DNA of 64,000 bases from a virus, in IMG/VR virus record IMGVR_UViG_3300028625_000001, positions 32,001 to 96,000 of that record. The stretch is one strand, 5' to 3'. The notes under the pieces were generated by a model. The model was not told where the DNA came from. It was given only the letters and a program-made list of their open reading frames with translations, and did no database searches. Each line of letters starts with the position of its first letter. The first letter of the stretch is position 1. The position numbers were made by a program, and so were the translations under genes. This document shows positions 3,924 to 46,268 of the stretch, piece by piece.

Positions 3924-3952
3924 TTGACAAATAAAAAGTCATGTGTTATATT
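3924..3952 (+). promoter_or_regulatory. sigma70-type promoter upstream of the tmRNA
   Basis: TTGACA, a 17-nt spacer, then TATATT. The -10 box ends about 44 nt before the tmRNA 5' end. Confidence 0.6.
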
Positions 3953-3995: not shown

Positions 3996-4295
3996 GGGGA
4001 TGACAAGGTTTCGACAGGGCTGTACAAGTATTGACCTCATGCCGTCGAGAGACGTAAAACCTAAACTAAGAACTGACAACCCATTACTTGAAAGAGCGGC
4101 TGCTTAGTCGCTCCCCGTCCGAAAATTTCCTACTCTTATATCGGGTTACGGGTCATAAAGAGTAGGGCTACGAGCCCCAAGTTTGTGTAGAAGTTCTTGT
4201 TAAAAACTTCTATTCGCCTCCAAGCATAGGAAAGCATGTAAAGGGTCGGCATGGAACAGTTTTGGACCCGGGTTCGACTCCCGGCATCTCCACCA
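3996..4295 (+). ncRNA. ssrA: tmRNA (SsrA)
   Basis: 5' end is GGGGATGACAAGGTTTCGACAGGG. 3' end is GGACCCGGGTTCGACTCCCGGCATCTCCACCA (T-arm, acceptor and CCA). A candidate internal tag reading frame ends ...CCATTACTTGAAAGAGCGGCTGCTTAG (..PLLERAAA-stop). Confidence 0.85.
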
Positions 4296-4443
4296 GCTCT
4301 TTTGCCAGTGCACACCAGTAGAACGGAAAGACCTTTTTCATCAAACCTCCTTTCAAGCGGGGTCATGGTTTAGGCGGGGTTCGATTCCCCGCGGCCCCGT
4401 CAGAGTTGGACAAACTCATTACTGGCATTTCGTTTGAAAGAAC

Positions 4444-4517: not shown

Positions 4518-4568
4518 GTCTCATAAGAGACGACGGTGCTTGCAACTGAAACTCACCCCTAAAATAAA

Positions 4569-4647
4569 GCCGATGTCTTCTAAAAGGAAAGATAAGCTCC
4601 TGCCGTGAGAGGGGCAGAGAATGTGAGTTCGAATCTCACCATCGGCT
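4569..4647 (+). tRNA. tRNA, anticodon uncertain (possibly Gly-GCC)
   Basis: Acceptor GCCGATG/CATCGGC and T-arm GTGAG-TTCGAAT-CTCAC are clear. The anticodon region folds ambiguously. One fold gives loop CTGCCGT with a 3-bp stem and an 11-nt variable region. The other gives stem CTGCC/GGCAG with an 8-nt loop. Confidence 0.55.
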
Positions 4648-4730
4648 TTAGTTTTGTCGGCCACAAAACGTACAAACGTTTGTCTTGCAGAGCTACTTTT
4701 GTCGGGTCTTTTTACCCGGCAATTGTCGCT

Positions 4731-6507: not shown

Positions 6508-6629
6508 TGCCCCGTGGCGGAATGGTAACGCCTAGCAAAACGGTAGGTCGATACGGTGGGGGTGTCCCCGCCGTCCAAACAGCTCGGAAGAGTCTGGATT
6601 CGTTGTGGGTTCAAGTCCCACCGGGGCCG
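6508..6629 (+). tRNA. class-II (Leu-like) tRNA-like gene with an internal insertion of about 45 nt
   Basis: Leu-type D-arm GTGGCGGAATGGTAACGC, T-arm GTGGG-TTCAAGT-CCCAC and acceptor (T)GCCCCG/CGGGGC(C). The anticodon-region helix CCTAGC...GCTCGG encloses a 9-bp hairpin (ACGGTGGGG-GTGT-CCCCGCCGT). Total length is about 122 nt. Confidence 0.5.
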
Positions 6630-6637
6630 TTATATAT

Positions 6638-6715
6638 GGGTAGTTTAGGTTAAATTGGCAAACCGCTTTGGCTCATAAGCCAGAGAAGCGCGGGTTCAAA
6701 TCCCGTAACTGCCCA
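6638..6715 (+). tRNA. tRNA-Met family (anticodon CAT)
   Basis: Acceptor GGGTAGT/ACTGCCC, CTCATAA anticodon loop motif and T-arm GCGGG-TTCAAAT-CCCGT. The anticodon stem can extend to 7 bp, which would leave a 6-nt loop (unusual). Confidence 0.75.
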
Positions 6716-6720
6716 CAGAC

Positions 6721-6894
6721 TTGACGGTGGCGGAACTGGTAGACGCTATCGTGGCCTTTTGGCAACGCACAACAAAAGTGCGACCTTGCAGTTATATGAC
6801 TGTATTTGGTGGGGCTCGATGAGAAAACATCGAAAACAAACTTGCTAGAAGATAGACCCCAATCTTCGTATAGGTTCGAATCCTGTCCGTCAAG
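6721..6894 (+). tRNA. tRNA-Leu-like gene with a 91-nt internal insertion
   Basis: Perfect acceptor TTGACGG/CCGTCAA, Leu-consensus D-arm GTGGCGGAACTGGTAGACGC, long variable arm GAAGAT...ATCTTC and T-arm ATAGG-TTCGAAT-CCTGT. Helix TATCG...TGCTA brackets 91 nt (6752-6842) containing several hairpins. Confidence 0.5.
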
Positions 6895-8390: not shown

Positions 8391-8460
8391 AAGCGGGAAA
8401 GCTCATTGGAGAGCGCCCTAACAGATGGGGAGGTTGTGGGTCCGAATCCCGCCTCGCTTA
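8391..8460 (+). tRNA. tRNA-like gene, non-canonical (anticodon unresolved; CAG in the best hand fold)
   Basis: Acceptor AAGCGGG/CTCGCTT, D-arm GCTC-ATTGGA-GAGC and T-arm GTGGG-TCCGAAT-CCCGC. The anticodon stem has only 4 bp (CCCT/GGGG), and the loop AACAGAT has no U at position 33. Confidence 0.45.
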
Positions 8461-8613: not shown

Positions 8614-8657
8614 AGGAGCGTAACTCAGTTGGTTAGAGTGCTGATCTGATACGTCAG
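8614..8657 (+). pseudogene. 5' portion of a tRNA-Ile (GAT)-like gene, lacking variable loop, T-arm and 3' acceptor
   Basis: AGGAGCG-TA-ACTC-AGTTGGTTA-GAGT-G-CTGAT-CTGATAC-GTCAG gives acceptor 5' strand, D-arm and a complete anticodon arm. No matching T-arm or CGCTCCT 3' acceptor was found on either side of the IscB element. Confidence 0.5.
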
Positions 8658-8897
8658 TCAACGACCCACGGCTAAAGCCGGGAGCTTGTAGCTCTTGTTG
8701 ACCAGCTTGAGTGTTTTGAGCACTACGTTACGGGTGAATACATAGGCACTCCGGGGTGACGCCACCAGCCCCGGACACTGCGGTGAATGATTAAACAGGT
8801 TGAGGGTCTAAACCAGTGTTGTTCACATTAAACCACTTGATAACATTGGCGAGGTGGACTTTACCGGCGTATGCCGAGAATTGAGAGGTAACTATCT
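8658..8897 (+). ncRNA. candidate IscB omega RNA (HEARO-like) scaffold
   Basis: A 240-nt non-coding, GC-rich region directly upstream of iscB with several hairpins (CGGC-TAAA-GCCG, GAGCT-TGT-AGCTC, CCGGGG-N12-CCCCGG). This position matches known IscB omega RNAs. No covariance model was run. Confidence 0.5.
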
Positions 8898-10151
8898 ATG
8901 CAACGTGTATTTGTAGTTGACAAAAACAGAGAGCCACTGATGCCGTGTCATCCAGCGCGGGCAAGGGAATTACTAAAAAATAGACGGGCAAAAGTGTTAC
9001 GCCGCTACCCGTTCACCATCATCCTGCTGGACCGTGAGGGTGGTGATGTACAACCAGTTGCATTGAAGATTGACCCGGGTAGCAAAACTACAGGGTTGGC
9101 GCTGGTCGCTGATGGCCAGCGTGGGAAACGCGTGGTATGGGCAGGCGAACTTAACCACCGTGGAGAACAGATAAAAGCAAGTATGCTGTCAAGAAAACAG
9201 TTGCGGCGTGCACGCAGATCACGTAAGACTCGCTACCGTCAGCCGCGTTTCGACAATCGCCGCCGGGCCGAGGGGTGGATACCGCCGTCGCTGCGAAGTC
9301 GCGTGGACAACGTGTTGACATGGACAGAACGATTGCGTAGGTTCACACCTATCTGCGCCGTGAGTATGGAGTTGGTGAAATTTGACACACAGGCTATGCA
9401 AAACCCGGAAATCAGTGGTATTGAGTATAAACAAGGCGAATTGATGGGATATGAAGTGCGTGAGTATTTGCTTGAAAAGTTTGGTCGAAGGTGTGCTTAT
9501 TGCGGAGCGACTGGCGCGCCACTAGAAATCGAACATATTATTCCAAAGTCTCGTGGTGGGTCAAATAGGGTAAGCAACCTAACACTGTCTTGTACCGTAT
9601 GTAATCAGCATAAAGGCAATCAGACGGCAACAGAGTTCGGACATCCAACAATTCAGGACAAAGCGAAGCAACCATTGAAAGATGCGGCGGTTATGAATAC
9701 AACACGTTGGACACTTTATCGCAGCTTAAAACAATTAGGCTTACCAATGGAAGTCGGTACTGGTGCACGGACTAAATACAATCGAGTACGACAGAATTAT
9801 CAGAAAGAACACTGGATTGACGCAGCCTGCGTGGGTGTAAGCGGAGAAAAAGTGTATATATCTTCTGGCACAATACCACTGGTTATTAAGGCTACCGGTC
9901 GCCAGTCACGTATCATGTGTCGCCCGGATAAGTACGGTTTCCCGCGCACGAAAGCTAAACAAGGCCGTGTTCACTACGGTTTCCAGACGGGCGACATCGT
10001 GCTGGCAACAATTCCTGAAGGTAAACATACCGGGGTACATATTGGACGTGTGGCAGTTCGTAACAGACCATCGTTTCGACTGAACGATTTTGATGTACAT
10101 CCAAAATACTTAAAAGTTTTGCATCATTCAGACGGCTACAGTTATCAGTGA
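8898..10151 (+). CDS. iscB: IscB, an RNA-guided RuvC/HNH nuclease (OMEGA system)
   Basis: PLMP domain (DKNREPLMPCHPARARELLKNRRAKV), RuvC-I (LKIDPGSKTTGLALV), Arg-rich bridge helix (RRARRSRKTRYRQPRFDNRRR), RuvC-II (VSMELVKFD), HNH with two CxxC pairs (CAYCG..LEIEHIIPKSRGGSNRVSNLTLSCTVCNQHKGN) and RuvC-III (EHWIDAACVG). At 417 aa it fits compact IscBs. Confidence 0.88.
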   Translation: MQRVFVVDKNREPLMPCHPARARELLKNRRAKVLRRYPFTIILLDREGGDVQPVALKIDPGSKTTGLALVADGQRGKRVVWAGELNHRGEQIKASMLSRKQLRRARRSRKTRYRQPRFDNRRRAEGWIPPSLRSRVDNVLTWTERLRRFTPICAVSMELVKFDTQAMQNPEISGIEYKQGELMGYEVREYLLEKFGRRCAYCGATGAPLEIEHIIPKSRGGSNRVSNLTLSCTVCNQHKGNQTATEFGHPTIQDKAKQPLKDAAVMNTTRWTLYRSLKQLGLPMEVGTGARTKYNRVRQNYQKEHWIDAACVGVSGEKVYISSGTIPLVIKATGRQSRIMCRPDKYGFPRTKAKQGRVHYGFQTGDIVLATIPEGKHTGVHIGRVAVRNRPSFRLNDFDVHPKYLKVLHHSDGYSYQ

Positions 10152-10209
10152 AAGGAGGGAGCGCCATTCCTCACCGCGCTAAAGCACGGTGTCCCCTGGC
10201 GCAATTTCT

Positions 10210-10476
10210 ATGGGAATAAAAGCAAAGACGTTGTGGGTGCACGTTAGGTCTTCAGGTTCATATCAGGCATTGTACATTAACGGAATTAAAGAAATCGAAG
10301 GCGAACAAATAGACATTGTTGAAGCTTTTGACCTCTTGGCCGAAAGAACGAATAACGAAGCCTATATCCTCGATTATACATACGAAGACATAGACGAGGA
10401 AGAAGATCCTTTTGATAATGCAGTAGATCGTGACTTCGATTTCCCGGAATCGCTTGACAAAAAGGACGTTATATAG
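10210..10476 (+). CDS. hypothetical acidic protein
   Basis: ORF with internal ATG 10210 (MGIKAKTLWV...) and a highly acidic C-terminus. The start is uncertain (ORF track gives 10189). Confidence 0.45.
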   Translation: MGIKAKTLWVHVRSSGSYQALYINGIKEIEGEQIDIVEAFDLLAERTNNEAYILDYTYEDIDEEEDPFDNAVDRDFDFPESLDKKDVI

Positions 10477-10560
10477 CAGATAGGGTAGTTTATTCTGCAA
10501 GATGGTCAAAATAAAGAACAAAACTAGAGTTTTGCAGAATAATGCAGAAAAGAAAAACGC

Positions 10561-10689
10561 GGGCGCATGGCAAAATTGGCAGATGCTATCGTGACCGAAA
10601 GGTTAGGAGTCTCGTGAGTGAACACGTGAAAAAGCTCGCTAGAATGGGGATCTTGACCATTCGTACAGGTTCGAATCCTGTCGCGCCCA
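10561..10689 (+). tRNA. class-II (Leu-like) tRNA-like gene with an internal insertion of about 45 nt
   Basis: Acceptor GGGCGCA/CGCGCCC (A7-C66 mismatch), D-arm GCA-AAATTGGCAGA-TGC, variable arm GAATGG...CCATTC and T-arm ACAGG-TTCGAAT-CCTGT. Helix TATCG...CGCTA brackets hairpins GACC-GAAA-GGTT and CGTG-AGTGAA-CACG. Confidence 0.5.
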
Positions 10690-11004
10690 TTAGACCCCGG
10701 CAGGGTCATATTAAACCAGAGAGCAGTTAAGTCTTTCTGTACCAATAGCCGGGTGCAGTCTCTGTTGTAATCCGTTGGCCCGTTTCAGGTACAGAGACGA
10801 AGCAGAAGCGGGCATAAAATTAACCTCCATATCGGACCTTCCGATGGACGCATCGAGAACGGCTAACCGGTATGGCAGAATTGATCCCCACGTCCGCCCT
10901 GCATGTCGACGGGCAGTGATAGGTCAACGGGCGTGGTAGTTAATCCGCGGGACAGTACGCCGAGCCGCTGAAAGGGAAAGTCCTTATGTGACCGGAGTAC
11001 GAGC

Positions 11005-11075
11005 AGAGGGGTAGCTTAATAGGTAAAGCTGATCTCATCCATGGATGTATGCAGGTTCGAATCCTGCTCCCTTTG
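11005..11075 (+). tRNA. tRNA, probably Gly (TCC), with an atypical anticodon loop
   Basis: Acceptor AGAGGGG/TCCCTTT (two G-U pairs), D-arm GCTT-AATAGGTA-AAGC and T-arm GCAGG-TTCGAAT-CCTGC. The loop at canonical numbering is CATCCAT, with A at position 33. Confidence 0.55.
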
Positions 11076-11089
11076 CTAGAAGGAGTTGG

Positions 11090-11620
11090 TTGGTTGTGTT
11101 TTTTAGAAAAACGTTGAAGGAAATAATTTCCAAGATTACCAAGGGGAATTTAGTAATATGCAACAAGGTCAAGTATGTAGAAGAGGCCGTCAACGACGAA
11201 CGCCAATTGATATATGGTCTTAGCGGCGAGATAAAAGCGCTTCGAGATGCGATAGTAGAGAACCCTTTTGCTAATCCTCAAAAGGGGAATTTATCTATCC
11301 AACAAGAAGTGTATATAGAACACAGCGACGGGGCTAGGGAAAAGACGGACGAACTCCGCCGCTTAGTCCTTGGAGCAACTTATAAACATTTCAAAGGAGA
11401 CAACTATAGAGTCCTTGGACTTGCAAAACACCACGAAAGCGGCGAAATACTGGTAATTTACCAGATGGTATATAACTACCTAAACACTTATTTGTCGATA
11501 GCTACCGTCGGCGAAATCTATGCCCGGCCAATAGATGACTTTCTTTGTCTGGTAGAGCGCGACGGGGAAGTTAAACAAAGATTCCAGCTTATAAGCGAGC
11601 TGAGAAAGGAGGAGACATGA
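11090..11620 (+). CDS. DUF1653-like domain protein
   Basis: YKHFKGDNYRVLGLAKHHESGEILVIYQ matches the DUF1653 signature. The start is TTG 11090 or GTG 11096 after AGGAG. The ORF-track start at 11045 lies inside the tRNA. Confidence 0.55.
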   Translation: MVVFFRKTLKEIISKITKGNLVICNKVKYVEEAVNDERQLIYGLSGEIKALRDAIVENPFANPQKGNLSIQQEVYIEHSDGAREKTDELRRLVLGATYKHFKGDNYRVLGLAKHHESGEILVIYQMVYNYLNTYLSIATVGEIYARPIDDFLCLVERDGEVKQRFQLISELRKEET

Positions 11621-11889
11621 ACGGCGCTAAGGAATATGCAGAGAAATATTTTATAGCAATCAGTGGATATGAAACAGATGTTCGTTACGCCTTAAACATT
11701 GCTTTCTTTAGGAGACTGGCGGTAAGAATGGGCGCCGCCGATGATCCCGATGCGGACGCGCTTCTTAAAAAAGGCGATGAGTTCTATAAAGAAAACAGAG
11801 ATGAAATATTAAAGGCATTACGGGCGAATCCATCTTGGACATCAGAAGAAGAAGCATATATAGAAAAAGAAATAACGGGAGGGAATTGA
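11617..11889 (+). CDS. hypothetical protein
   Basis: 90-aa ORF with RBS GGAGGAG and an ATGA overlap with the upstream gene. Confidence 0.55.
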   Translation: MNGAKEYAEKYFIAISGYETDVRYALNIAFFRRLAVRMGAADDPDADALLKKGDEFYKENRDEILKALRANPSWTSEEEAYIEKEITGGN

Positions 11890-11891
11890 GA

Positions 11892-12245
11892 TTGACTAAA
11901 CGTTTTTGCGATCATTGCGGTGAAGCGATCCCTGACAAAGATAGTTTTTATACCGTTGAACTTAACGGCAAGCAGTATGATTTTTGTTCTATAGCCTGTC
12001 ATGAGGCGTTCGTCGCCGCACATAAAGATGAGATCGAAAAGCATCAGCTTGAAAGAAGAAACAAAGAGCTTGACAAAAGACATAAGGAACTTGAGGCAAG
12101 GATTCATAAGTTAGAAGAGCGAATCTCTTCTCTTGAAATGATGGAAATGTGGAAGGAATTTTTCCCTGTGCAATTCCCTGACTTGCAAGTTGCCTCGGAT
12201 ACTAATGAGAGCGCCAGACTCCCCTTTGTTACTTATACCCTTTAG
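11892..12245 (+). CDS. zinc-ribbon (TRASH/MYM-like CxxC..CxxxC) plus coiled-coil protein
   Basis: FCDHCGEAIP...FCSIACHEAF followed by a heptad-rich KHQLERRNKELDKRHKELEARIHKLEERISSLE. TTG 11892 lies 8 nt after GGGAGGG (start uncertain; 11886 is also possible). Confidence 0.5.
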   Translation: MTKRFCDHCGEAIPDKDSFYTVELNGKQYDFCSIACHEAFVAAHKDEIEKHQLERRNKELDKRHKELEARIHKLEERISSLEMMEMWKEFFPVQFPDLQVASDTNESARLPFVTYTL

Positions 12246-12255
12246 CAAAATACAG

Positions 12256-15290: not shown

Positions 15291-18200
15291 ATGGAACCAC
15301 AAGACACCTATGATTATCTATTGACTATGGGCGTTGATGCCAAAAAAGTCTTTGAGACGTTTAACAAGATTGATGAGCGGGCCGATCAGATTGGACAGAA
15401 TATAGACTTGAAAGGTTTACAACGCCTCACCACAGAAATGACTAATGTCCAGAAACAGCTTACCACAATCATAACCGACTTCAATAGACTAGGTACAATT
15501 ACAGGGAAAGTTGCAGCGCCTATCAACACTAAAGGAATAGAAAACGCGAAACAACAAGTAAGTAGCCTCAGCGACGCGATAAACAAGGTGAATCAACAAG
15601 TCGGAGCCTCTATAGAAAGTCAGTCAAAACAGGTAGAACAAAAATTTACCAAGAGTCTTAGCGACTTTGTAAAGAAGAACAAGGAAATAAGCTCAAGTAT
15701 TCCCGCTACATATAAAGACGCTTTCGCCGCGTTATCCGCCGAGGTACAAAAAACGATCCCGAAGATCCAGGAAGAGATGCGAAAGCTCGTCGATATATGG
15801 GATCAGCAATCACCAGAAGTCAAAGGACAAACCCCCCTTAAGAGTCTTATCCCCTCTCAACAAATAGCCTTAGATATGGAAGACGGCAAAAAAGCTATCT
15901 TTGAAGTAACTTATCAGTATGACAGGCTCAAGGACGAAATGACCGCCGTTGTTAAAGCTTCTAATGATGTAGCAAAGTCTATGAAGGATATTCCCACAAT
16001 GAAAGTCTTTGGTCAGGCGGTCGAGCCAGTCGAAAAGGTAAAAACCTCGCTCGAAGAAACGGCAACGACCATCAAGACCAGATATGGAGAAGCTTTCCAA
16101 ACTTTCAATAGACACATCAACGAGTCTTTCCCTAAAGCGGAAGAGAGAATAAAAAAGTTTGCCGATGAATGGGCCAAAATGTCGGAGGAACAAAAAAGAC
16201 AAACCCCCTTAAGTAAGATAGCAGATCCTGACTATTTTGTCATCGAGCTTGAAGACGGCAAAAAAGCTCTTTATGAAATAAGTTATGCCTATGACGAAGT
16301 GAATAAACAAGTAGTAGCCAACGTAAAGGCACATAACGAGTTTGCGAAATCACTTGATGAGATCCCTAACAAAGTCAAGTTAAGCGGCCAGGCTATGGTC
16401 AACAACTTCAGCAATGCAACTGAAGTCACTAGAAAAACACAGAGCGCCTTTATGGACTTGGCGCGGGAGATAAAAGACTCCGTTCCGGTCATGAAAGAGC
16501 AAATGGAAAGTTATGTCCGTGAATGGGAGAAAGTTAGAGGTATTGACCAAGAATCGATTCCTCTTGACGCCATGAAAAAGACCAAGCAATTTGTAGTCGA
16601 TATAGGCAATGGGCAAAAAGCACTCTATGAAGCTACTTATACATTCAACAGAATGACCGGCGAAGTCTCTACCTCCGTGAAGGCGGTTAATGACTTTGCT
16701 AAAGCCTTCGATGGTATACCCGGGAAGTTTGATGTTGCGAAAAGGGCCGGTCGTGGCGTAGTCGATACTCTTAGAAATATTCAGACCGTAGGGCTCGCCG
16801 CGCAAAAGGTTTTTACCTGGTTGGTCGCTACAACCCTAATATATGGGACCATCAGATCCTTCCAGAAATACGTTTCTATGTTGTCGGAGATCGAGGAGAA
16901 GTTTATTACTCTCCAGAAAGTTACAAGCGATACCGGGACAGTCGAGAGATATTTTGAAACAGCAATGGTCCTTGCAGATGCTTACCGCATGAAGATTCAA
17001 GATACCCTCGATGTCATGACCGAGTTTGCACGGCAGGGTCTGAGAGGCGAAGAACTCTTATATGCCACTCAAGCCGGACTTTTAGCGACTCAGGCGACCC
17101 CTTTAAGCGCAGAAGAATCTACTAAAGCGCTTATCGCTATGTCAAAACAATTCAATATAGCGGCTGAGGATCTTGCTCAGACAGTTGACAAGATAACGAA
17201 CGTAGCCAACAACTTTGCAGTAGAAGCAAAAGACCTTACAGAAGGGCTTTCTATCGTGGGACAAGTAGCTTCTATAACCGGGGCTACGATAGATGACATG
17301 TCCGCAATCATTGCCACGGCGGGAACCGTGACTAAAAAAGCGGGAAACGAAATAGGTAATGCCTGGAAGGTGATAATAAGTAGGATTTATGGTAGCGAAC
17401 AATCCCAGAGAGAAATATCTAACCTTCTTGGTCTTCCTATGGTAGATATCGTTAATCAACCGTTGGTGGAGCTCCTGGCTCAAATGGCGGACAGATGGAA
17501 GACGGTAGACGAGTCTCAGAAAAACGCCGTTGCCAGCGCTATTGTCGGACGCAGAAGATATGCCGATCTTGTGGCGGTCCTTGAGAATTTTGATCTCGTG
17601 GTCGATGCGGCCGCAACCTCTATCTCTTCTTTTGGTGCCGCAGAAAGGGCCGTCTCCTTACAGTTTGACAGCTTTAAGAGTGCGGTTCAGGAATTAAAGA
17701 ATACTGCTTATAACCTGACCAGGACTTTTGGAGACGAACTACTCAATGCCCTGGCGGGAGCGATAGACCCGGAAAGGATCGGGGCATTGATTACAGCGAC
17801 AGTAGCTCCCACGGTCATAAACGCTTTCTATAAGATATTCACAAAAACCGCTTTCCTTTCAAAGGGTTGGCTTGGCTTAGTCACCGCGGCTATTGCTGGG
17901 ATAGGTTTCGCAATAGTCTCTCATCTTGAAAAGGTAGAACAACTTAGGCGGCACTACACGAGGCTAGACAATGAAGTAGATACCCTTACAAAAGGATATA
18001 AAGACTTACAAGTTCAGCTTAGTAAAATAGATTCTTCGACAAAAGATGCAGCTTTTGAACAACAGAAATTACAGCTCGCTTTGACCAAGACTAAAGACAG
18101 GATAAGAGAACTCATTCCTTTTGTCACCAAGATAAGTGAGATCGATGGCAAGTTGTCTTTTGACATTGACGAAGAGTCTTATATGTATGCGCAGGAATTG

Positions 18201-21200
18201 TTGGACAAGCTACCAAAAGAGAAGAATATAAAACTCTTGCTTGAGTTCGACCCCGACAATATCAAGGCTGTCCAAGAAGCGCTTTCCGGCTCTCTTCAAG
18301 ACCTACTGGACCAGAAGATAAAAGAGTCAGGGTTTGGCGGCTTAATCAATACAATAACCGGCAAAACGGGGACTTCTTCTGCTTTATTAGCCTTGTTGCA
18401 GAAAGACTTTTATACACAAAGCCTAAAGAGTCCAATGGAGACATATAGGGAAATATTCAGACATCTCTATGGTGTTTCCAATGAAGGTGCATTTTACGAG
18501 TCTCAATTGGCAATCACCGAGATTTTAGGTAAGCGGATGGAAGGGTTAACGAACCTAATCGAAGAGCTTGACCGGTATGAGGCTATCTATAACGAGATTC
18601 TTAGTTTACCAGAGGAAAGAAGAAGTTCCGCAGGGAAGGAGTTCGTGTCCATCTTCGACTCTCTTGACCTCAAAAACGTGAAAAGAGAGTATATGTTACT
18701 TTTCGAAGGTTATAGAAGCTATATAGAACTCTTCCAAGAATATACAAAAGAAATAGAAGGAATGGCCTTCTCGGATTATATTGATGCTAATTTTGATATC
18801 TCTAACCTAGACTTCGACAATGCAGAAAAACTTATAGAAGCCTTACAGGGAGAAAACACAGAAAGGTCCTTGAAGCAGATTCTTATTTTAAGTGCTGCAA
18901 TTGGACAGGCCACAAAGAGGATAGAGGGGTTGGGGAACGAGCTCCAGGATGTCGAAATTCCCCAGGATGATCTTGATGCGCTTATAAAGTCTTTCAATAT
19001 CCAGGAGCAAACAAATGTCCTCGGAGATATAGGAGAGGATATCGAGATCGGTGTTGGTGCAATCAACAAGATTTACTCCGACGTTATGAAGACGATTCTC
19101 TCTCTCGATTCATTCAAAGCGCTTGAACAAATTAAGAACTTACAATCTCAGTTCGCGGCGTATCATATGGTCGAGAAAAGTAGCGTTGTTTATGCTCTTG
19201 ATGACTATTTTCAGACCTTCAAAGACTTGCAGCCACTGGAACAAGTTCTATCAACCACGTTTGGTAAGACTTCGTGGAAAGGGATGTTAGCCAGACTAAA
19301 TCTCCTTGAGAGTACGAAAGAGGAGAGTCTAGCCCCGGAAATAATAGGGATCTATAAACCCTTCTTAGAGGATATGGTAGCAATTCAAGAACTTGCTCTT
19401 GAATACATAACCAATGAGCTTAACTCTCTTAAGGAAATTGAGGATGCAACTTTTGCCACGACAGAAGAGGCAATTAACTATCTCTTCAAGACTAATTTTG
19501 GAGCCAATTGGGAAGACATAGCCCAGCTTGCTATAGGGCAGCCCGGGGTCAGAGGGGACAAACTTGTTTCTCAGCTAGGAATACTTGTCGGACAGGTAAA
19601 GTCGGCGAAACCGGAGGAACTAGACATAGAATCTCTCTATAAAGACATTATCGGAAACCTCGATATGCTTTCTTCTGAAGAGTTCGCAATAGTTCAGAAC
19701 ATGATCCTTGCCGGTGATAGAAGTGTTGACTGGATAAAGAAGTATTCCGACATAATCAATAAGAGAGAGGATACGCTTTCTGAGGCGGAATCGGTCATAA
19801 GACGTCAACTTGACGAGATGAAGCTTTCTATGCCAGACACTCAGGTACGCGATCTCCGTTGGTCCGGGGCGTATTCCCCAGACAAAGAAATAGAGATCGT
19901 TACTAAATACATAAGTCAAGTCTCCGCACTTGTTGCTGCTCAGACTAAGGCTTTAGGCATAGAAGACCCATTAATAATAGAAAAGTTGCAGGACGCCTTC
20001 GATATCGGCGCCGGGAGTTCTTTTATTGAACGTCTTGGTGATTTAGAGCTTCAGATAAAGGAGAATACCGAACAGTTTCTTAGCCAATACCAGAGCGTTC
20101 TTGACGGAGTAACTTTCCCAATAGAGCTGGCGGCAGAAATGCAATCAGACCTGACTAAAAAAGCCGCGGTCATAAGGAATAAGACCAGACATGTTTTTAC
20201 CACAGTCCCAGAGGTCTTGAAGACCTATGTAGATCGATTGATAAATCTCATAGGGTCAAGAGACATGGTATATATCGAGAACGAACTAAACGATATACAG
20301 ACCAGCCTTAAGGAGATCGACCCGACAAGTCTTACTGAACAAGATCTTGATAAACTGTCCGAACTGATGGGATATGTCAATTCATGGTCATCTACCATAG
20401 TAGATGCAATCTATGGAAACGTAGGTTCTACTCAGAAAGAATTAACCAACACCATAAATCTTCTAAGACAGAACCAGAACGAACCCATCTTAGAAGAACA
20501 ATACCAGAATCTATTCGACGCGATCCTTGAAATGTATGATAATATCCTTTCTAATGCCGAATCGATGGAGGATAACCTGGCGATAATCGGGAAAAATACG
20601 CTACGGACAACGATTATCTCCACTATCGAACAGGCAAAAAAAGAGGTTGAAGCGATTGCCAAGCAAGGGACGGGCGCCGATCTCAATAAACTCCAATCCC
20701 TCCTTGATCTATCCTCTGTCCTACAGGCTAGAATTGATAGCTACAATGAACTCTCGGCTAGTATAGAAGCCGGGATTAGCATGTATGACAAGAACGAAAC
20801 CATACAATTGATAGTGAATGGTATGGAGGAGATTTTTGAGCGCGGGGAGAAGAGGCTTGCCGAGTCTCTAACAATCAGGGTAGAAGACATATACGCAATA
20901 ATGAGTTCCTTGATAAGCGGAGATACCGCCGGACTAGCTTTCAGCGAAGATGTGTCTGGACTCATAGCCTCTCTTAATGCCGATCAGAGAAAAGCTGTGT
21001 ACGATAGATTCAATAGAGAGGTTCAAAAAACCAGATTTGGCGCTCAACAGAACATCGAAGCTCTCTTAAACCAGACACAGTACGGTCAGTTTACCGACCA
21101 GATAACCAGCATAGAGAATCTCTTGGGCCTAAACCGTGAACTTGGCGGGACTGGACTCGCAAAGCTTATACAGACCTCTTTAGATCAATTATACGGTGAT

Positions 21201-24200
21201 ATATATGCTTCGATAATAGGGGTTGTAGCTTCTGTGGATTCAGATATCCAATCTTATATAGACTCCGGTTTTGCGGCGGAATATCTTCCCGATCTGACTC
21301 TTCTTAAAAACAGACTTATTTCCTTTTTGGAAACACCTATAACTACTCTTGAAGAGGCAAAAGAGGCGGCAGTAGAGTTAGAAAAGTTTACAGATGAGTT
21401 TGACAGGATCTCGACCGCAACAGCTTCAAGAAGAACCGAAGCACAAAGAGAGGCAGAAAGAATATTAGAGTCGATTGACACAATTATAGGCTCGGATAAT
21501 GAGTCGATTGAAGTATATAGACGTGCTTTGCAAGAGATGCGAACTCTCGATATAACCGATCCATTTGTCAAAAGCCTACTTTCAAAAGAACTCGCTCAAA
21601 GAGAGAAAGAGTACAACGCGGCTATAGCAGATTACTTTGTTATGAATACCGATAACACAGTCTCCAGAGTCATAGAGGAAATAGAGATATATTCAAGAGC
21701 CGAAAGAGGACAGAGAGAGTACGACTATATCGACGACCAGGTAATCGGCTTGAAGGATAATCTAACCTCTCTCCGCGAGACTATAAATGAAGCTTTACAG
21801 TATGGCATCTCTGCCCCTGAAACAATTAGAAAGCTGGATGAATACATTTCGGGGCTAGATTCTATAACTAAAGAGAACCTTCTTGACCAGGGAGTCGAAA
21901 TCCTTGCGAGGTTAGACCTAGAATTAAAGTTTATAACTGATACGTCCAGAGAGGTTAGAGAAGAACAAACTCGCTTCTTGGGGCAATACGAGGGGTATTT
22001 TGACCGTTTCTCCGAACTCTCCCTTGATACGGTTGAAAACATTCGCAAGTACCGTGAGGTATATGAGCAAGCAAGGGCTGAAATCGATACTTCAATCCCC
22101 TTTCTTGCCGAAGGGATGAGGAATGTCGAGGAGAATATTCTATCGGCTTACGAACCACAACTAGACCTCATTAAGAGTCTAGCCGACCTTCATTTCGATT
22201 ACTGGCTTATGGGCTATGGTGGTCCCGAATACGACAAGATCAAAGAGTATATAAAGCAGCTTGAAGCCATGCCTGCACAGGCGACGGCTCCCGGAGAGGT
22301 TTTTACCTACCTCGAAGACATCTTGACCATAAGAGAGTCTGTGGATCTCTGGACTGACGAGTTTAACTCTCTTTCCAACGAATATACCAAGCAGTTCAGA
22401 GACTATCAGAAGAGGTTTGATGAAGTGAGCTCGATGACCTCGATCTATGAGCAAGCCCGTGCAGCGGGACAGCTCAGGGACGAATTAAAGGCTCAAATGC
22501 AGATCCTTCAGACAAAAGAAGTCTCTGCCTATAGCACATATGCTATAAACAATCTGACTGAAATGTTCAATTCCCTTACTGAAATAGTCGATGACTACGG
22601 TACTCAGTTTAAGATGGACTACCTCGGTTCCTTCAAACAAATGGTGATAGAAAGGACCGACACTTCTCAATTCAGGGAACGAATGATCGATCAATCACTT
22701 GATTGGTTGAGCACTCTTTATGGCTATCGTCAGCAATTGACAGAGGCAATGCCGTGGGGATGGGAAGACAGAGGAGGACTACTCTCTTTAATCGATGAGG
22801 CTGTCGCCGCTTTAAGAGGAGAAATTACAGGGACCGATTTCCTTGAAGAAGGAGACTTAAACAATCTCGAAGCCATCATAGCTAAAATGAAGCAAGCGCT
22901 AGTAGATTTGTCTGAGGTCCAGAACGACTTTACTCAAAGATTCGGTTTGACTATAGAACAAATTGGAGAAATATCGCTCAACACCGCAATCTCTCTCCAG
23001 GACTACAACGATAGGCTCATTCAGTTGAAGGCGGATATATCTGAGCATTACGAGGGACAGATCCCGCAAAACGTATTAGAAATCATAGAAGGGCTTGAAA
23101 AGAGTTATGTCAATGCTAAGACCTCTCTTATAGAATCGATTAAGAAGGACGCGGAAAATCTAGCCCTTGGAGAATATTCAAGTATCCTCCTTTCTCTTTC
23201 CGCTGTGGTTGGCGATAACAGGTTGCCCGGGGCGGAAGACGCCCAAGCCATGATAGAAGGATCTTTAACCAAAGAATTGAAGTCTATGTTTAAGAGTAAT
23301 ATCTATCAAATGAGGACCGATCTTATATCCAGAAGAAGATGGTTGACGACCCAACCGAACGCAGGCAAAGACATCGAGACTATCGATGCACTCCTCTCTG
23401 ATTTAGCTTCTATCAATTTTGCAGAAGCTACAGACTTGGCCTCTTTAACTAACGTAGCCAAAAGAGTGGTGGTACTTTCTTCAAACATCAAAGACCTTCT
23501 CGATGGTTACGATAGGATTGAGGAAGAGATTGAGTCTAACACTATTCTTCAGGATCTCCAGGCTGAATTGGAAACGATAAAAGGAGAGAAGGATGTAATA
23601 GTCCAATACCAATTAGCTCAAAAATTCAAAGGAAAGTTGGCCGCGGCAAGCCTCTTCGCCAGCAACATTATCGGGGGTATAATGGGAGACCTCATAGCCC
23701 AACAGATAAATATGTGGCTTAGAGAACTCACCGACATGACTAATATAGACATAAGAGACTCCGAAATAGTCAACATTATCGATATGATAAGGCAAGTCCA
23801 GACTGGATATCCTCATTCACAATCGATGGTTCGAACAACACTTAGAGATTATGTGCTCGGTCTTAGCAGTAATGTATCTATGATAAATGAAGCTGCCAGC
23901 TATGGAATCGGCGGGACTGAACAAGTCTTGTTAGGGATAGAAGAGATAGCGAGGTTGATAGATCAGGCGATAAGCGATCCCAGCTCAGTTAGCCTGACTG
24001 ATCTTGAAAACAAGATCGAAGAAGTCAAAGAACGTATAGACAATATAAAGACCTTCTCTGAAGATGCCCAAAGAAAGTTCTCTTCAAAATACGGATTCGC
24101 AGTAGAGGAGCTTCAACAGAGGGATGTGTCTGACTTAACTGCCGCTTTAGACTTCTTAAATGATTATGTCGAGTTAAGAGACTTGATACTAAGCGATGCG

Positions 24201-25907
24201 GATTATGCCAACGCTCCGGCTATACAAAGTTTGCTTAATAGCTTAAAAGCACGCGTTACAGACAGCACGGCTTTGTCCGCATTTAATATCCAGGAGAACC
24301 TTCTCTGGAAACTGAAGACGACTCAAGAAAACGTCCTCTCGATGACTGGAACTTCAGACCCACAACAGAGATATAAGATGGTCCTGGATATACTCGATCA
24401 GTTAGCTTTTATTGAATCGACGGCTCCGGTGGGGTTTAAGACTAGCTTGACTAAAGGGTTATCCGCTCCATACGCATTGGCCAACGTTGGTAGTTTTCAG
24501 GACGCTTTAGCCTTTAGACTTGCAAATATCATAAACGAGATAGCTTCACCGGAATATCTCAGCGCACTCGCCGCAGATCTTTTTGCAGAAGAAGAGAATA
24601 AGACTTATAAAGACAGCCTAAGCGCGAGCATAAGGGGGAAACTCGCCGACGTAAAACTTCTCTATGACGAGATAGGCTCCCTTGCCGGAGAATACGTTGT
24701 GACTAACTTCTCCCTTCAGACAGAAGAGATGACGAACACTTTCTACGACTATATCTCTAGCGTCAAGAATATCTATGACCAGATGAAAGAAGTAGGACTC
24801 ATAGATAGAGGTTGGTGGGATGAAAATGTTGCCCCGATGTTGGCAACGATGGAGATCCCGGACGGGGAAGTTACCGCCGAACAATTTGTTGCTTTCTATG
24901 AAAAGATTATATCCTTCATAACCATGTTCGAGGAACAAGGGATCGGTGAAGGCGGCTATATCTACCAGAGTATGCTGGATTACATCTCGGAGATAGAAAA
25001 TGCACTTGCACTAGAACCAGAATCGACCTTTGAGGCGAATCTAAAGCGGACAGCACAGGGCTTGCTTGCAGAGAAAAATAAGATAGACTTCGTGAAGTCT
25101 ATGGGCTTTAATACAGAAAGATTGCAACAACTCTGGCTGGAGAAGGTTTTAGAACAGGCTAATAAGGGAGTAGAGGATTACAAAACCTTACTTGAGGAAT
25201 ATCAAGAGGGTTTAGGATTCTATGAAATAGAAGACCCGCAGTATAAGGCGGCACTAGAAAAGGCAATTCAGGAACTTGAGAAGATCGATTCCTTCCCTGA
25301 GATGGTGGAGAAGATGGCTGAGATATTCTCCCTCATTGCCGAAGCGGGGGGCTCCCTTGAAAAATTAAACAACGAGATTGAAAAGACAGCCGCCATTGAT
25401 GAATTGAGAGAAGCGATAGGCACCGGGCTCGGAGGTATTGCCGGGTCTGTGTCTCATCCAGCCTTCAAAGGATTCTTTAACCTACTTTCAGATGCGACAA
25501 AGTTCCTTGACCCGAAGATAACCGAGCAACAAATGAAGGAAGCTTACTCTCTTATGGCGGAGAATTTCATAAACATATTTACTGGACTATTCGATCAAGA
25601 CCAGGGTTGGGTAAAGGGAATGAATATAGGAGCTCAATTCGGTCAGACAGTTGGCCCGGCTCTAACTTCGATGATAGCAAGTATGGGATATTCCAATCCT
25701 ATGATCTCCTTTGGAACCGTTATAGTCTCGGCGCTCGCCGGGGCAATAATCGGTTCTCTTACAGACAATTCAGAAAGTACAAGAGACAATACAGAGGCAA
25801 TAAGAGAACTTACAAGGACTATGAAAGAGTTTAAGTTGCAGACCTTTGCTATGCCGGACGCTTTTTATATGTACGGCATCAATATTCAACGCGGATATTC
25901 TAGTTAA
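15291..25907 (+). CDS. tail tape-measure protein (3538 aa)
   Basis: Uninterrupted 10.6-kb ORF. It has a canonical TMP core (LQKVTSDTG...MTEFARQGLRGEELLYATQAGL...DKITNVANNFAVEAKDL...GNEIGNAWKVIISRI), TM/Gly-rich segments, a very long helical region and a C-terminal Gly-zipper hydrophobic region. Confidence 0.85.
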   Translation: MEPQDTYDYLLTMGVDAKKVFETFNKIDERADQIGQNIDLKGLQRLTTEMTNVQKQLTTIITDFNRLGTITGKVAAPINTKGIENAKQQVSSLSDAINKVNQQVGASIESQSKQVEQKFTKSLSDFVKKNKEISSSIPATYKDAFAALSAEVQKTIPKIQEEMRKLVDIWDQQSPEVKGQTPLKSLIPSQQIALDMEDGKKAIFEVTYQYDRLKDEMTAVVKASNDVAKSMKDIPTMKVFGQAVEPVEKVKTSLEETATTIKTRYGEAFQTFNRHINESFPKAEERIKKFADEWAKMSEEQKRQTPLSKIADPDYFVIELEDGKKALYEISYAYDEVNKQVVANVKAHNEFAKSLDEIPNKVKLSGQAMVNNFSNATEVTRKTQSAFMDLAREIKDSVPVMKEQMESYVREWEKVRGIDQESIPLDAMKKTKQFVVDIGNGQKALYEATYTFNRMTGEVSTSVKAVNDFAKAFDGIPGKFDVAKRAGRGVVDTLRNIQTVGLAAQKVFTWLVATTLIYGTIRSFQKYVSMLSEIEEKFITLQKVTSDTGTVERYFETAMVLADAYRMKIQDTLDVMTEFARQGLRGEELLYATQAGLLATQATPLSAEESTKALIAMSKQFNIAAEDLAQTVDKITNVANNFAVEAKDLTEGLSIVGQVASITGATIDDMSAIIATAGTVTKKAGNEIGNAWKVIISRIYGSEQSQREISNLLGLPMVDIVNQPLVELLAQMADRWKTVDESQKNAVASAIVGRRRYADLVAVLENFDLVVDAAATSISSFGAAERAVSLQFDSFKSAVQELKNTAYNLTRTFGDELLNALAGAIDPERIGALITATVAPTVINAFYKIFTKTAFLSKGWLGLVTAAIAGIGFAIVSHLEKVEQLRRHYTRLDNEVDTLTKGYKDLQVQLSKIDSSTKDAAFEQQKLQLALTKTKDRIRELIPFVTKISEIDGKLSFDIDEESYMYAQELLDKLPKEKNIKLLLEFDPDNIKAVQEALSGSLQDLLDQKIKESGFGGLINTITGKTGTSSALLALLQKDFYTQSLKSPMETYREIFRHLYGVSNEGAFYESQLAITEILGKRMEGLTNLIEELDRYEAIYNEILSLPEERRSSAGKEFVSIFDSLDLKNVKREYMLLFEGYRSYIELFQEYTKEIEGMAFSDYIDANFDISNLDFDNAEKLIEALQGENTERSLKQILILSAAIGQATKRIEGLGNELQDVEIPQDDLDALIKSFNIQEQTNVLGDIGEDIEIGVGAINKIYSDVMKTILSLDSFKALEQIKNLQSQFAAYHMVEKSSVVYALDDYFQTFKDLQPLEQVLSTTFGKTSWKGMLARLNLLESTKEESLAPEIIGIYKPFLEDMVAIQELALEYITNELNSLKEIEDATFATTEEAINYLFKTNFGANWEDIAQLAIGQPGVRGDKLVSQLGILVGQVKSAKPEELDIESLYKDIIGNLDMLSSEEFAIVQNMILAGDRSVDWIKKYSDIINKREDTLSEAESVIRRQLDEMKLSMPDTQVRDLRWSGAYSPDKEIEIVTKYISQVSALVAAQTKALGIEDPLIIEKLQDAFDIGAGSSFIERLGDLELQIKENTEQFLSQYQSVLDGVTFPIELAAEMQSDLTKKAAVIRNKTRHVFTTVPEVLKTYVDRLINLIGSRDMVYIENELNDIQTSLKEIDPTSLTEQDLDKLSELMGYVNSWSSTIVDAIYGNVGSTQKELTNTINLLRQNQNEPILEEQYQNLFDAILEMYDNILSNAESMEDNLAIIGKNTLRTTIISTIEQAKKEVEAIAKQGTGADLNKLQSLLDLSSVLQARIDSYNELSASIEAGISMYDKNETIQLIVNGMEEIFERGEKRLAESLTIRVEDIYAIMSSLISGDTAGLAFSEDVSGLIASLNADQRKAVYDRFNREVQKTRFGAQQNIEALLNQTQYGQFTDQITSIENLLGLNRELGGTGLAKLIQTSLDQLYGDIYASIIGVVASVDSDIQSYIDSGFAAEYLPDLTLLKNRLISFLETPITTLEEAKEAAVELEKFTDEFDRISTATASRRTEAQREAERILESIDTIIGSDNESIEVYRRALQEMRTLDITDPFVKSLLSKELAQREKEYNAAIADYFVMNTDNTVSRVIEEIEIYSRAERGQREYDYIDDQVIGLKDNLTSLRETINEALQYGISAPETIRKLDEYISGLDSITKENLLDQGVEILARLDLELKFITDTSREVREEQTRFLGQYEGYFDRFSELSLDTVENIRKYREVYEQARAEIDTSIPFLAEGMRNVEENILSAYEPQLDLIKSLADLHFDYWLMGYGGPEYDKIKEYIKQLEAMPAQATAPGEVFTYLEDILTIRESVDLWTDEFNSLSNEYTKQFRDYQKRFDEVSSMTSIYEQARAAGQLRDELKAQMQILQTKEVSAYSTYAINNLTEMFNSLTEIVDDYGTQFKMDYLGSFKQMVIERTDTSQFRERMIDQSLDWLSTLYGYRQQLTEAMPWGWEDRGGLLSLIDEAVAALRGEITGTDFLEEGDLNNLEAIIAKMKQALVDLSEVQNDFTQRFGLTIEQIGEISLNTAISLQDYNDRLIQLKADISEHYEGQIPQNVLEIIEGLEKSYVNAKTSLIESIKKDAENLALGEYSSILLSLSAVVGDNRLPGAEDAQAMIEGSLTKELKSMFKSNIYQMRTDLISRRRWLTTQPNAGKDIETIDALLSDLASINFAEATDLASLTNVAKRVVVLSSNIKDLLDGYDRIEEEIESNTILQDLQAELETIKGEKDVIVQYQLAQKFKGKLAAASLFASNIIGGIMGDLIAQQINMWLRELTDMTNIDIRDSEIVNIIDMIRQVQTGYPHSQSMVRTTLRDYVLGLSSNVSMINEAASYGIGGTEQVLLGIEEIARLIDQAISDPSSVSLTDLENKIEEVKERIDNIKTFSEDAQRKFSSKYGFAVEELQQRDVSDLTAALDFLNDYVELRDLILSDADYANAPAIQSLLNSLKARVTDSTALSAFNIQENLLWKLKTTQENVLSMTGTSDPQQRYKMVLDILDQLAFIESTAPVGFKTSLTKGLSAPYALANVGSFQDALAFRLANIINEIASPEYLSALAADLFAEEENKTYKDSLSASIRGKLADVKLLYDEIGSLAGEYVVTNFSLQTEEMTNTFYDYISSVKNIYDQMKEVGLIDRGWWDENVAPMLATMEIPDGEVTAEQFVAFYEKIISFITMFEEQGIGEGGYIYQSMLDYISEIENALALEPESTFEANLKRTAQGLLAEKNKIDFVKSMGFNTERLQQLWLEKVLEQANKGVEDYKTLLEEYQEGLGFYEIEDPQYKAALEKAIQELEKIDSFPEMVEKMAEIFSLIAEAGGSLEKLNNEIEKTAAIDELREAIGTGLGGIAGSVSHPAFKGFFNLLSDATKFLDPKITEQQMKEAYSLMAENFINIFTGLFDQDQGWVKGMNIGAQFGQTVGPALTSMIASMGYSNPMISFGTVIVSALAGAIIGSLTDNSESTRDNTEAIRELTRTMKEFKLQTFAMPDAFYMYGINIQRGYSS

Positions 25908-29501: not shown

Positions 29502-29514
29502 GGGGGGATGGGTA

Positions 29515-44471: not shown

Positions 44472-44689
44472 CTTATAAAATTACAGACTTAGAAGACGGA
44501 AGAATAGAAATTGAAATAAGTTTTTTAGACGAGGATATTGATCTTGTTGGTAAAACGACAATTATTGGCGAAGAAAATGATGCCGAAAAATACCTTCCGT
44601 TTTTTGAAAAGGATCTAAGAGTCAATTACTCTTATTTATTTCCAACTCCAGAGCCAGAGCTGATATTAGAAGAAGGTGATTTTATATGA
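44468..44689 (+). CDS. hypothetical acidic protein
   Basis: 73-aa ORF with ATGA overlaps on both sides. Confidence 0.5.
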   Translation: MTYKITDLEDGRIEIEISFLDEDIDLVGKTTIIGEENDAEKYLPFFEKDLRVNYSYLFPTPEPELILEEGDFI

Positions 44690-46246: not shown

Positions 46247-46268
46247 AGATATGGGAGAGACCCATTTA

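Follow-up and report, generated by a model that had tools for sequence, protein, structure and literature searches.

Three phage genes derived from tRNA-Leu carry a structured module in place of the anticodon loop and are probably non-decoding RNAs

Transfer RNA (tRNA) genes of phages are usually read as codon supply or as anti-defence spares, and over-long ones are filed as 'intron-containing' or 'undetermined' and ignored. What such a gene might be when it holds no recognisable anticodon is the question raised by a locus in the IMG/VR virus record IMGVR_UViG_3300028625_000001, of which we analysed positions 32,001 to 96,000 (64,000 nucleotides (nt); this whole stretch is hereafter called the window). 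An original prediction, made from the sequence alone, had noticed here three Leu-like class II tRNA genes, which we call g1, g2 and g3, each interrupted in the anticodon arm by a structured insert, and had left three explanations side by side: a novel small class of tRNA intron, tRNA-like RNAs with another function, or decayed tRNAs. Our analysis favours the second, which is supported by covariation, an invariant junction and the lack of a derivable anticodon. We consider it about 60% probable that the three genes specify non-decoding, tRNA-like RNAs that derive from tRNA-Leu and carry a functional junction module.

All three genes were found on the + strand where they had been predicted. Segmentation by hand, verified as exact substrings of the sequences, placed inserts of the expected lengths (about 45, 91 and 45 nt) inside the anticodon stem and agreed with the predicted closing helices and hairpins. 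The closing helix of g2 and g3 is termed P1, and the inner helices P2 and P3.

6508-6629, + strand: g1, with a 45-nt insert; acceptor stem 6508-6514/6622-6628, D-arm 6517-6531, T-arm 6605-6621, discriminator G6629
6532-6536/6582-6586, + strand: closing helix of g1, CUAGC/GCUCG, with one U.C mismatch
6537-6581, + strand: insert of g1, with a 16-nt purine-rich joiner (6537-6552), a 9-base-pair (bp) hairpin (6553-6574) and the joiner CCAAACA (6575-6581)
6553-6574, + strand: 9-bp hairpin of g1, ACGGUGGGG-GUGU-CCCCGCCGU
6721-6894, + strand: g2, with a 91-nt insert; acceptor stem 6721-6727/6887-6893, D-arm 6730-6746, variable arm 6848-6867, T-arm 6870-6886, discriminator G6894
6747-6751/6843-6847, + strand: P1 of g2, UAUCG/UGCUA
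6752-6842, + strand: insert of g2, four hairpins, with P2 at 6752-6765 (UUUU loop) and extra hairpins at 6766-6782 and 6783-6810
6811-6815, + strand: joiner GGGGC of g2, followed by P3, UCGAUG-A[GAAA]A-CAUCGA (6816-6833), and the A-rich 3' joiner AAACAAACU (6834-6842)
10561-10689, + strand: g3, with a 45-nt insert; acceptor stem 10561-10567/10682-10688, D-arm 10570-10586, variable arm 10642-10662, T-arm 10665-10681, discriminator A10689
10587-10591/10637-10641, + strand: P1 of g3, UAUCG/CGCUA
10592-10636, + strand: insert of g3, with P2, UGACC-GAAA-GGUUA (10592-10605), and the joiner GGAGUCU (10606-10612)
10613-10626, + strand: P3 of g3, CGUG-A[GUGA]A-CACG, followed by the A-rich joiner UGAAAAAGCU (10627-10636)
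10614-10619/10634-10639, + strand: helix competing with P1 and P3 in g3, GUGAGU/GCUCGC

Outside the insert, each gene has a 7-bp acceptor stem, UG at positions 8-9, a 3-bp D-stem, a Leu-type D-loop with G18G19, a long variable arm and a 5-bp T-stem whose loop is UUCGAAU or UUCAAGU; in their acceptor stem, G18G19 D-arm and T-psi-C-type T-loop all three thus have the body of a canonical tRNA. None has the canonical 5-bp anticodon stem with a 7-nt loop (U33 and a purine at position 37), and 45-114 nt stand in that place across the members of the family described below. A CCA 3' end is not encoded. The g1 gene starts with U1, mismatched to C72 in the window and paired as U1-A72 in its orthologue in the related contig L016, and the acceptor stem of g3 has an A7.C66 mismatch. 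The original prediction had also given the three closing helices the same internal mismatch; a U.C mismatch is indeed present in each, at the third pair in g2 and g3 and at the second in g1, so that its position is not strictly the same unless the last C of the D-stem is borrowed.

The descent of this body can be traced. The D-arm of one relative, L012, equals annotated E. coli tRNA-Leu genes at 20 of 20 bases, and the CUAGC strand of g1 is that of positions 27-31 of E. coli tRNA-Leu, which identifies the closing helix as a remnant of the anticodon stem. By this comparison the genes descend from tRNA-Leu genes. The discriminator base is G in eight of 10 distinct members and A in the other two (g3 and L014). 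Standard tools pass over the three genes: default ARAGORN, without introns, and Rfam at gathering score missed them all. Under permissive E-value filters, the Rfam tRNA model (RF00005) aligned g3 end to end (model positions 1-71, 29.3 bits against a gathering score of 29) and reported neither g1 nor g2 at E<=10; the L012 copy reached 34.3 bits.

Relatives were reached through the neighbouring genes and then through the inserts themselves. Neither flanking open reading frame (ORF) has relatives in IMG/VR; the one downstream of g2 has 17 homologues in a large protein collection, and the contig that encodes the nearest of them (L005, 98% identity) has one insert-bearing gene, in the same position directly upstream of that ORF, with an insert like that of g3, a D-arm matching g2 and an acceptor stem unlike either. 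The part common to the g3 and L005 inserts, GGAGNNNCGTGAGTGAACACG, served as a search pattern and had 13 matches among metagenome contigs, six in tRNA-like genes (L006, L012, L013, L016, L008 and L014) and seven in unrelated GC-rich coding sequence. Altogether, the copies in the seven further contigs number one of the g1 type, one of the g2 type and seven of the g3 type; together with the three of the window they make 10 distinct sequences. L016, part of a 113-kilobase (kb) contig, carries orthologues of all three window genes and shares 95-98% sequence identity with the window across this region. The most distant are L008 and L014, in which the P2 arm is enlarged to 70 and 39 nt, respectively; neither has GG in the D-loop (a hairpin replaces that part in L008), their T-loops read UGUAAGU/UGUAAAU, and the G18G19/T-loop elbow signature is lost.

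A covariance model that we built from four members recovered all known copies and no copy in the window beyond g1 (32.2 bits; 39.6 for its L016 orthologue), g2 (70.7 bits, E 1e-13) and g3 (137.9 bits). In IMG/VR the insert pattern and a further pattern had no match, and another had only a chance match in an HU gene. An exact-level scan of 185,579 prokaryotic species genomes, one per species, was likewise empty, so these genomes show no sign of the family. Among the matches listed for a broad pattern, GGYAGAYGCTATCGTG, in IMG/VR and genome contigs, almost all were chance matches in coding sequence and one was flanked by a tRNA. This one, at positions 2690-2852 of the IMG/VR contig L116, is the 5' fragment of a Leu-like tRNA and is immediately followed by a normal tRNA-Ala; its string GACGCUAUCGUG forms a 6-bp stem with a 4-nt loop, and it is not a clear family member.

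Since a MAFFT alignment of all members was structurally unusable, a covariance-model alignment and the hand segmentation took its place. Covariation was scored on the former, comprising eight rows (seven distinct) of g2- and g3-type copies from the window, L005, L006, L012, L014 and L016. Standard pairs make up 96.5% of its cells, against 32-45% when the 3' partners are slid by one to three columns; both sides have changed in 18 of 34 pairs, and none of 500 shuffles reached any of five measures. Changes of this kind run through the acceptor, D, variable-arm and T helices and through P2: the acceptor stem occurs in six different sequences, each paired, and P2 occurs as UGACC/GGUUA, UGGUU/GACCA, UGGCU/GGCCA and UGCCG/CGGCA. 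Moreover, all differences between g2 of the window and its L016 orthologue are transitions, which either leave a pair intact or convert a wobble to a Watson-Crick pair. Judged from these substitutions, selection acts on all helices of the body and on P2. The P1 strands UAUCG and CGCUA, which lie outside the search pattern, are 100% identical in six members of the g3 type, against only 34-39% identity between their acceptor strands; the junction is therefore held to its sequence more tightly than the acceptor stem. Overall, the inserts are constrained in sequence as strongly as the tRNA body or more so.

In g3-type members the module follows a fixed order: P1 (UAUCG), P2, a joiner J2/3, P3, a joiner J3/1 and the second P1 strand (CGCUA), directly after which comes the variable arm. 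P2 opens with UG, closes with A and varies in between; J2/3 consists of (A)GGAG plus three variable nucleotides, with AGGAG invariant, although GGAG was part of the search pattern; P3 reads CGUG-AGUGAA-CACG; and J3/1 is A-rich, 9-11 nt long and ends in CU or CA. The plan of g2 is the same with two extra hairpins after P2, the joiner GGGGC and a longer P3. Compared with the g3 type, P3 of g2 is longer by one base pair, through the paired insertion of an A (5' strand) and a U (3' strand), and the P3 loop is A[GUGA]A in the g3 type, A[GAAA]A in g2 and A[GAGA]A in the L016 copy of g2, so that a GNRA loop flanked by A.A is always kept; the paired insertion and the kept loop argue for P3 as a real hairpin. 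The U.C mismatch of P1 recurs in all eight g2- and g3-type members. In g1 the plan recurs, with a closing helix around a single strong hairpin, a purine-rich joiner on the 5' side of this hairpin and an A-rich one on its 3' side, and there is little sequence in common with the others; against its L016 orthologue the hairpin is kept and the 5' joiner has changed at five positions. Taken together, the comparisons prove P2, support P3 and make P1 probable. The fold proposed by the original prediction thus stands in its hairpins and helix, and its certainty does not, as P1 never varies in the g2 and g3 types and another helix competes with it.

Three further features of the module were considered and set aside. 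A mini-ORF starting from a GUG after AGGAG varies in frame length and stop codon among members. Pairing between the joiner and the variable-arm loop is possible in g2 (UGGGG/CCCCA) and has no counterpart in the g3 type. A Ro60-binding site, or the GNCGAAN0-1G motif of YrlA RNAs, is fitted by L008 only, by chance.

Could the genes nevertheless decode, after removal of the insert? Decoding tRNAs with a new small intron, taken out by a phage or host activity (e.g. a nuclease plus an Rnl/RtcB-type ligase) to leave an unusual mature anticodon loop, would explain why the insert lies exactly at the position of the anticodon loop and is closed by the anticodon stem. Lak megaphage tRNAs have been reported with 'enigmatic introns' (PMC6784885), and a distant relative, L002, has a T4 Rnl1-type ligase gene beside a homologue of the neighbouring ORF; with this ligase as query, however, no ligase gene was found in the window. 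ARAGORN with introns allowed (-i), a check suggested along with the original prediction, modelled all three genes as intron-containing at default stringency, but its calls (Phe(aaa) i31 for g1, Ser(gct) i34 for g2 and Gly(acc) i38 for g3) are mutually inconsistent, and anticodons and intron positions were different again in the L016 orthologues. These calls are fits of convenience and no evidence of an anticodon.

For each of the 10 distinct members we then removed every single segment of at least 8 nt between the D-stem and the variable arm and looked for a 5-bp stem (at least four pairs) with a 7-nt loop bearing U33 and a purine at 37. Seven of the ten gave no solution, and the few four-pair solutions were not common to orthologues (present in L005 and L006, absent from L012 and g3). 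This exhaustive enumeration of single excisions agrees with the prediction that no canonical 7-nt loop can be derived, and any derivable anticodon loop is absent from these sequences. Protein-spliced tRNA introns of archaea and eukaryotes have a bulge-helix-bulge at the exon-intron borders, usually at position 37/38. A strict scan for this motif (3-nt bulges, 4-bp helix) found none in L005, L006, L012 and g1, and only scattered, non-homologous matches in the remaining members.

Group I introns, which occur in bacterial tRNA-Leu and other tRNA genes, share the host gene type and the insertion site in the anticodon loop; they have a conserved catalytic core and a known minimum of about 200 nt, whereas the inserts in the window measure 45-91 nt and match no Rfam family at E<=10, in keeping with the prediction that they are too short for this class. 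The Infernal/Rfam comparison that had been proposed for group I introns, hammerhead, twister, hatchet and similar families gave no intron, ribozyme or riboswitch at E<=10 on any insert or on the P2 domains of L008 and L014, and small self-cleaving ribozymes (hammerhead, twister, pistol, hatchet and hepatitis delta virus-like) had no match on any member at E<=10 or E<=5. A hammerhead reading of CGAUGAG...CGAAA in g2 was rejected, the segment being a plain 6-bp hairpin that matches no Rfam model. Moreover, four relatives cover the orthologous site, and none was seen to have an insert-less allele. With no excision product shared by orthologues, no conserved bulge-helix-bulge and no Rfam family, the small intron class offered by the original prediction is disfavoured and appears unlikely.

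A function of its own is indicated for the element by the combination of a conserved family, a tRNA-Leu body, no possible anticodon and a junction more constrained than the acceptor stem. As non-decoding RNAs, g1-g3 would presumably be co-transcribed with their neighbours, and because acceptor stem, D-arm, T-arm and long variable arm are all retained, their maturation is expected to follow that of a tRNA: RNase P would cut the 5' end, 3' trimming would release the RNA, and CCA addition is proposed since none is encoded. The product would be a stable RNA of 120-175 nt with tRNA-like stability, in which the 7-nt anticodon loop is replaced by a junction module that the anticodon-stem remnant P1 would close and that would comprise a P2 arm (a 5-bp GAAA hairpin at its smallest, a 70-nt domain at its largest), a G-rich joiner, a GNRA-capped P3 and an A-rich joiner, in the P1/P3 fold rather than the alternative one. 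The module would be the working part, most likely a surface on which a protein or another RNA docks, with the tRNA body as its scaffold. The single-stranded AGGAG and the A-rich joiner are candidate contact sites, for instance for the anti-Shine-Dalgarno sequence, S1, Hfq or a phage protein. Such a scaffold fits the variation better than a substrate with strict synthetase identity would, given an acceptor stem that varies freely, a discriminator that is mostly G and an elbow lost in L008 and L014.

Several observations weigh against this reading. No partner, target or conserved neighbouring gene was identified, and the downstream ORF of 484 amino acids (aa) follows the element in four loci only; as a dedicated partner this ORF was rejected, being without Pfam or PHROG match and not always adjacent. 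The family has only ten distinct members and was found by a pattern derived from the insert, with 18 specified bases (GGAG and CGTGAGTGAACACG), so conservation of these bases follows from the way the copies were found. The insert of g1 shares little with those of g2 and g3 and may not be homologous to them. P1 shows no variation in the g2 and g3 types, in which it is therefore unproven, its support coming only from the different, still paired helix of g1. Finally, with the tRNA body fixed, a nearest-neighbour model gives the g3 type an alternative fold of -42.8 kcal/mol against -32.0 kcal/mol, and RNAalifold also picks the alternative, in which P2 is lengthened by U29-A48 and C30-G47 and GUGAGU pairs with ACUCGC, with use of the same invariant bases. 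The alternative is not backed by any compensatory change; two of its pairs are missing in g2, and L008 puts an A.A mismatch into it. In these models, the competing helix would be either an artefact or the second state of a switch.

The element might instead act in cis, as punctuation or as part of a 5' untranslated region, its body directing RNase P/Z cleavage of a polycistronic transcript and its anticodon region, not being needed, free to grow. In line with this, the ribosome-binding site of the 484-aa ORF comes about 30 nt after the end of g2 (in the window and in L016) and of the g3-type copies in L005 and L013, the acceptor stem is unconstrained in sequence except for pairing, and L008 and L014 are without the G18G19/T-loop signature. 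However, that ORF is not downstream of g3 or of the L012, L006 and L014 copies, and the junction is the most conserved part, its GNRA loops and P2 pairing being kept, which would be unexpected of a dispensable region; we regard this possibility as improbable.

It is also doubtful, if worth stating, that the RNAs are charged anticodon-less tRNA mimics or two-state switches toggling between P1/P3 and GUGAGU/ACUCGC, with a module that engages the translation machinery (e.g. AGGAG with the anti-Shine-Dalgarno sequence) or a tRNA-targeting host defence; if true, this would be a new RNA-based way for a phage to reprogram or protect translation. A more specific version, with a logic like that of transfer-messenger RNA (tmRNA), has the RNA charged by a synthetase of the leucyl- or seryl-tRNA synthetase type, which ignores the anticodon, and the AGGAG module docking on the 30S subunit to alter translation. 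The class II, Leu-type body suits it, as synthetases for Leu and Ser recognise their tRNAs without the anticodon; the single-stranded joiner of g3-type copies always holds AGGAG (GGAG being in the search pattern), the joiners of g1 and g2 are G-rich, and the phage has its own tmRNA nearby. Leu identity in E. coli, however, needs A73, and most members have a G discriminator; the acceptor pairs show no fixed sequence, two members are without the elbow signature, there is no G3.U70, and no reading frame is conserved, the GUG frame differing in length and end. This version is accordingly quite unlikely.

Decay, the third of the originally offered options, is rejected as very improbable: although abnormal tRNA-like genes occur elsewhere in the region, as does a tRNA-Ile gene disrupted by an IscB element, pseudogenes with insertions in their anticodon loops would not be expected to show compensatory changes throughout the body helices and P2, a closing helix (UAUCG/CGCUA) kept invariant across diverged copies, and differences between g2 of the window and of L016 that are all pair-preserving transitions.

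The three genes lie in an island of RNA genes at about 3.9-12.5 kb of the window, all on the + strand and in the orientation of the flanking ORFs. The surrounding segment is phage-like in content, with a DnaB-type helicase, a UvsX-like recombinase, an anaerobic ribonucleotide reductase, a retroelement and two giant ORFs, and among isolated phages (INPHARED) neither the region nor single genes had a match by megablast or blastn, so that no close relative is present there. The best sigma-70-like promoter of the region, and its sole strong promoter-like site, is at 3924-3952, upstream of a tmRNA gene. As tmRNA is a bacterial RNA, its presence in the phage indicates a bacterial host. The island also holds tRNA-Gln, tRNA-Gly, tRNA-Met, tRNA-Ser, a HEARO/omega RNA with its IscB gene and other tRNA-like genes. 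Features of the island and of a retroelement further downstream are the following.

3996-4295, + strand: tmRNA (108.9 bits), in the island
8657-8864, + strand: HEARO/omega RNA of the IscB element
8898-10151, + strand: 417-aa ORF with RRXRR and HNH (IscB)
44686-45861: retroelement target gene, with an FGE-sulfatase/C-type-lectin-like fold
45734-45849: variable repeat of the retroelement, at the 3' end of the target gene
45704-46246 (within): bAvd gene of the retroelement
46268-46383: template repeat of the retroelement, 92% identical
46539-47609: reverse transcriptase of the retroelement

The tag predicted for the tmRNA is VKPKLRTDNPLLERAAA, and directly after it, at 4347-4400, lies a minihelix of acceptor plus T-arm (CGGGGUC...GCGGGGUUCGAUUCCCCGC GGCCCCG). 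Apart from g1-g3, the island has several more tRNA-like genes with abnormal anticodon loops. Between g1 and g2, the tRNA at 6638-6716 (Rfam 41.3 bits) has an anticodon loop read as 8 nt, CUCAUAAG, which in its L016 orthologue is CUCACAAA; from its sequence it could be quadruplet-reading or otherwise non-standard, or, in the window, a C-G pair could form instead and bring the loop down to 6 nt. At 8391-8460 (3332-3401 in L005), a tRNA-like gene of 28.3 bits (32.9 bits for the L005 copy) has an anticodon stem that closes a loop of 5 nt only, and this odd arm appears to be maintained, since its innermost pair is A-U in the window and G-C in L005. A cloverleaf-like element at 4568-4648 has an altered anticodon arm in the window, its L005 orthologue being a tRNA at 47.8 bits (Arg ccg by ARAGORN).

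At 8614-10213, the IscB element interrupts a tRNA-Ile(GAU) gene, whose 5' part, up to and including the anticodon arm, is at 8614-8656. The element is inserted after ...GUCAGU, in place of 151 nt that L016 and L005 have intact. A copy of IscB with 84% identity sits at another site in L016, which points to recent movement, and the tRNA sequence abutting the 5' end of the omega RNA would be the guide of the element. Between g3 and tRNA-Gly, a GC-rich, ORF-poor stretch of 315 nt (10690-11004), present in L016 and absent from L005, folds better than shuffled sequences (z = -2.7; 1 of 100 shuffles as good), has no Rfam match and may be another non-coding RNA. Elsewhere in the window, the diversity-generating retroelement is complete (44686-47609), and the giant ORFs, both on the + strand, extend over 15291-25907 (3538 aa) and 29494-43059 (4521 aa); between the two lies a 1032-aa ORF that matches nothing in Pfam or PHROG.

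How do g1-g3, as putative non-decoding RNAs, compare with known systems? Like them, tmRNA (RF00023) combines a tRNA-shaped acceptor/T-arm body with other structured RNA in place of the anticodon arm, is non-decoding and is encoded by phages too. It is distinguished by the alanine identity pair G3.U70, a reduced D-arm, pseudoknots and a tag reading frame, whereas g1-g3 have a full Leu-type D-arm, a long variable arm, no conserved frame, no evidence of a pseudoknot and an insert of 45-114 nt; their pair 3-70 is C-G in g1 and G-C in g2 and g3, and RF00023 matched only the real tmRNA in the window, not g1-g3. Stable non-tRNA RNAs that mature with tRNAs are also present in the tRNA cluster of phage T4 ('species 1' and 'species 2'), a resemblance that is no more than a lead.

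Y RNAs of the YrlA type (RF02553) likewise join a tRNA-mimicking module to a second functional module, the tRNA-mimicking one being in M. smegmatis a substrate of RNase P and of CCA addition (PMC4201824, Chen et al. 2014). Their topology is the reverse: YrlA ends in a Ro60-binding stem on the anticodon side and its acceptor end is closed, whereas g1-g3 end in the acceptor stem and are closed by the module on the anticodon side. RF02553 had no significant match on the three genes, only one at chance level (17.8 bits, E 9.3, at 6590-6674, spanning two genes), and tblastn with the TROVE protein of the distant relative L004 found no Ro60/TROVE gene in the window. In L004 itself (JGI 3300040744), positions 9236-12246 hold Ro60/TROVE followed by tRNA-Met, tmRNA and a YrlA-like RNA (34.5 bits, below gathering); phages of the broader group thus appear to use tRNA mimics.

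The closest published phage observation is that of the Lak megaphage 'enigmatic' tRNA introns (PMC6784885, Devoto et al. 2019), conserved insertions that lengthen the anticodon region and that no known splicing mechanism explains. In those tRNAs an isotype and anticodon can be assigned in eukaryote mode (Tyr GTA, Thr TGT) and intron-less alleles exist, whereas g1-g3 have no derivable anticodon loop and no insert-less allele was seen.

Full-text searches of the literature found no description of the present architecture and no natural bacterial or phage RNA with cargo in the anticodon stem. Structured RNA carried by a tRNA body is found in engineered tRNA scaffolds, which are artificial, hold RNA grafted into the anticodon stem and gain tRNA-type processing and stability, and in the TMERs of murine gammaherpesvirus 68 (MHV68), whose hairpins lie 3' of the tRNA-like part. 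Thus, g1-g3 are most likely tRNA mimics of a kind not yet described, forming a small, well-defined family, and they warn that a phage tRNA gene called 'intron-containing' by ARAGORN or tRNAscan can in fact specify a non-decoding RNA. If they are natural tRNA scaffolds, they would be a bacterial-virus counterpart of the mimicry of tmRNA and Y RNAs and a natural precedent for the engineered scaffolds.

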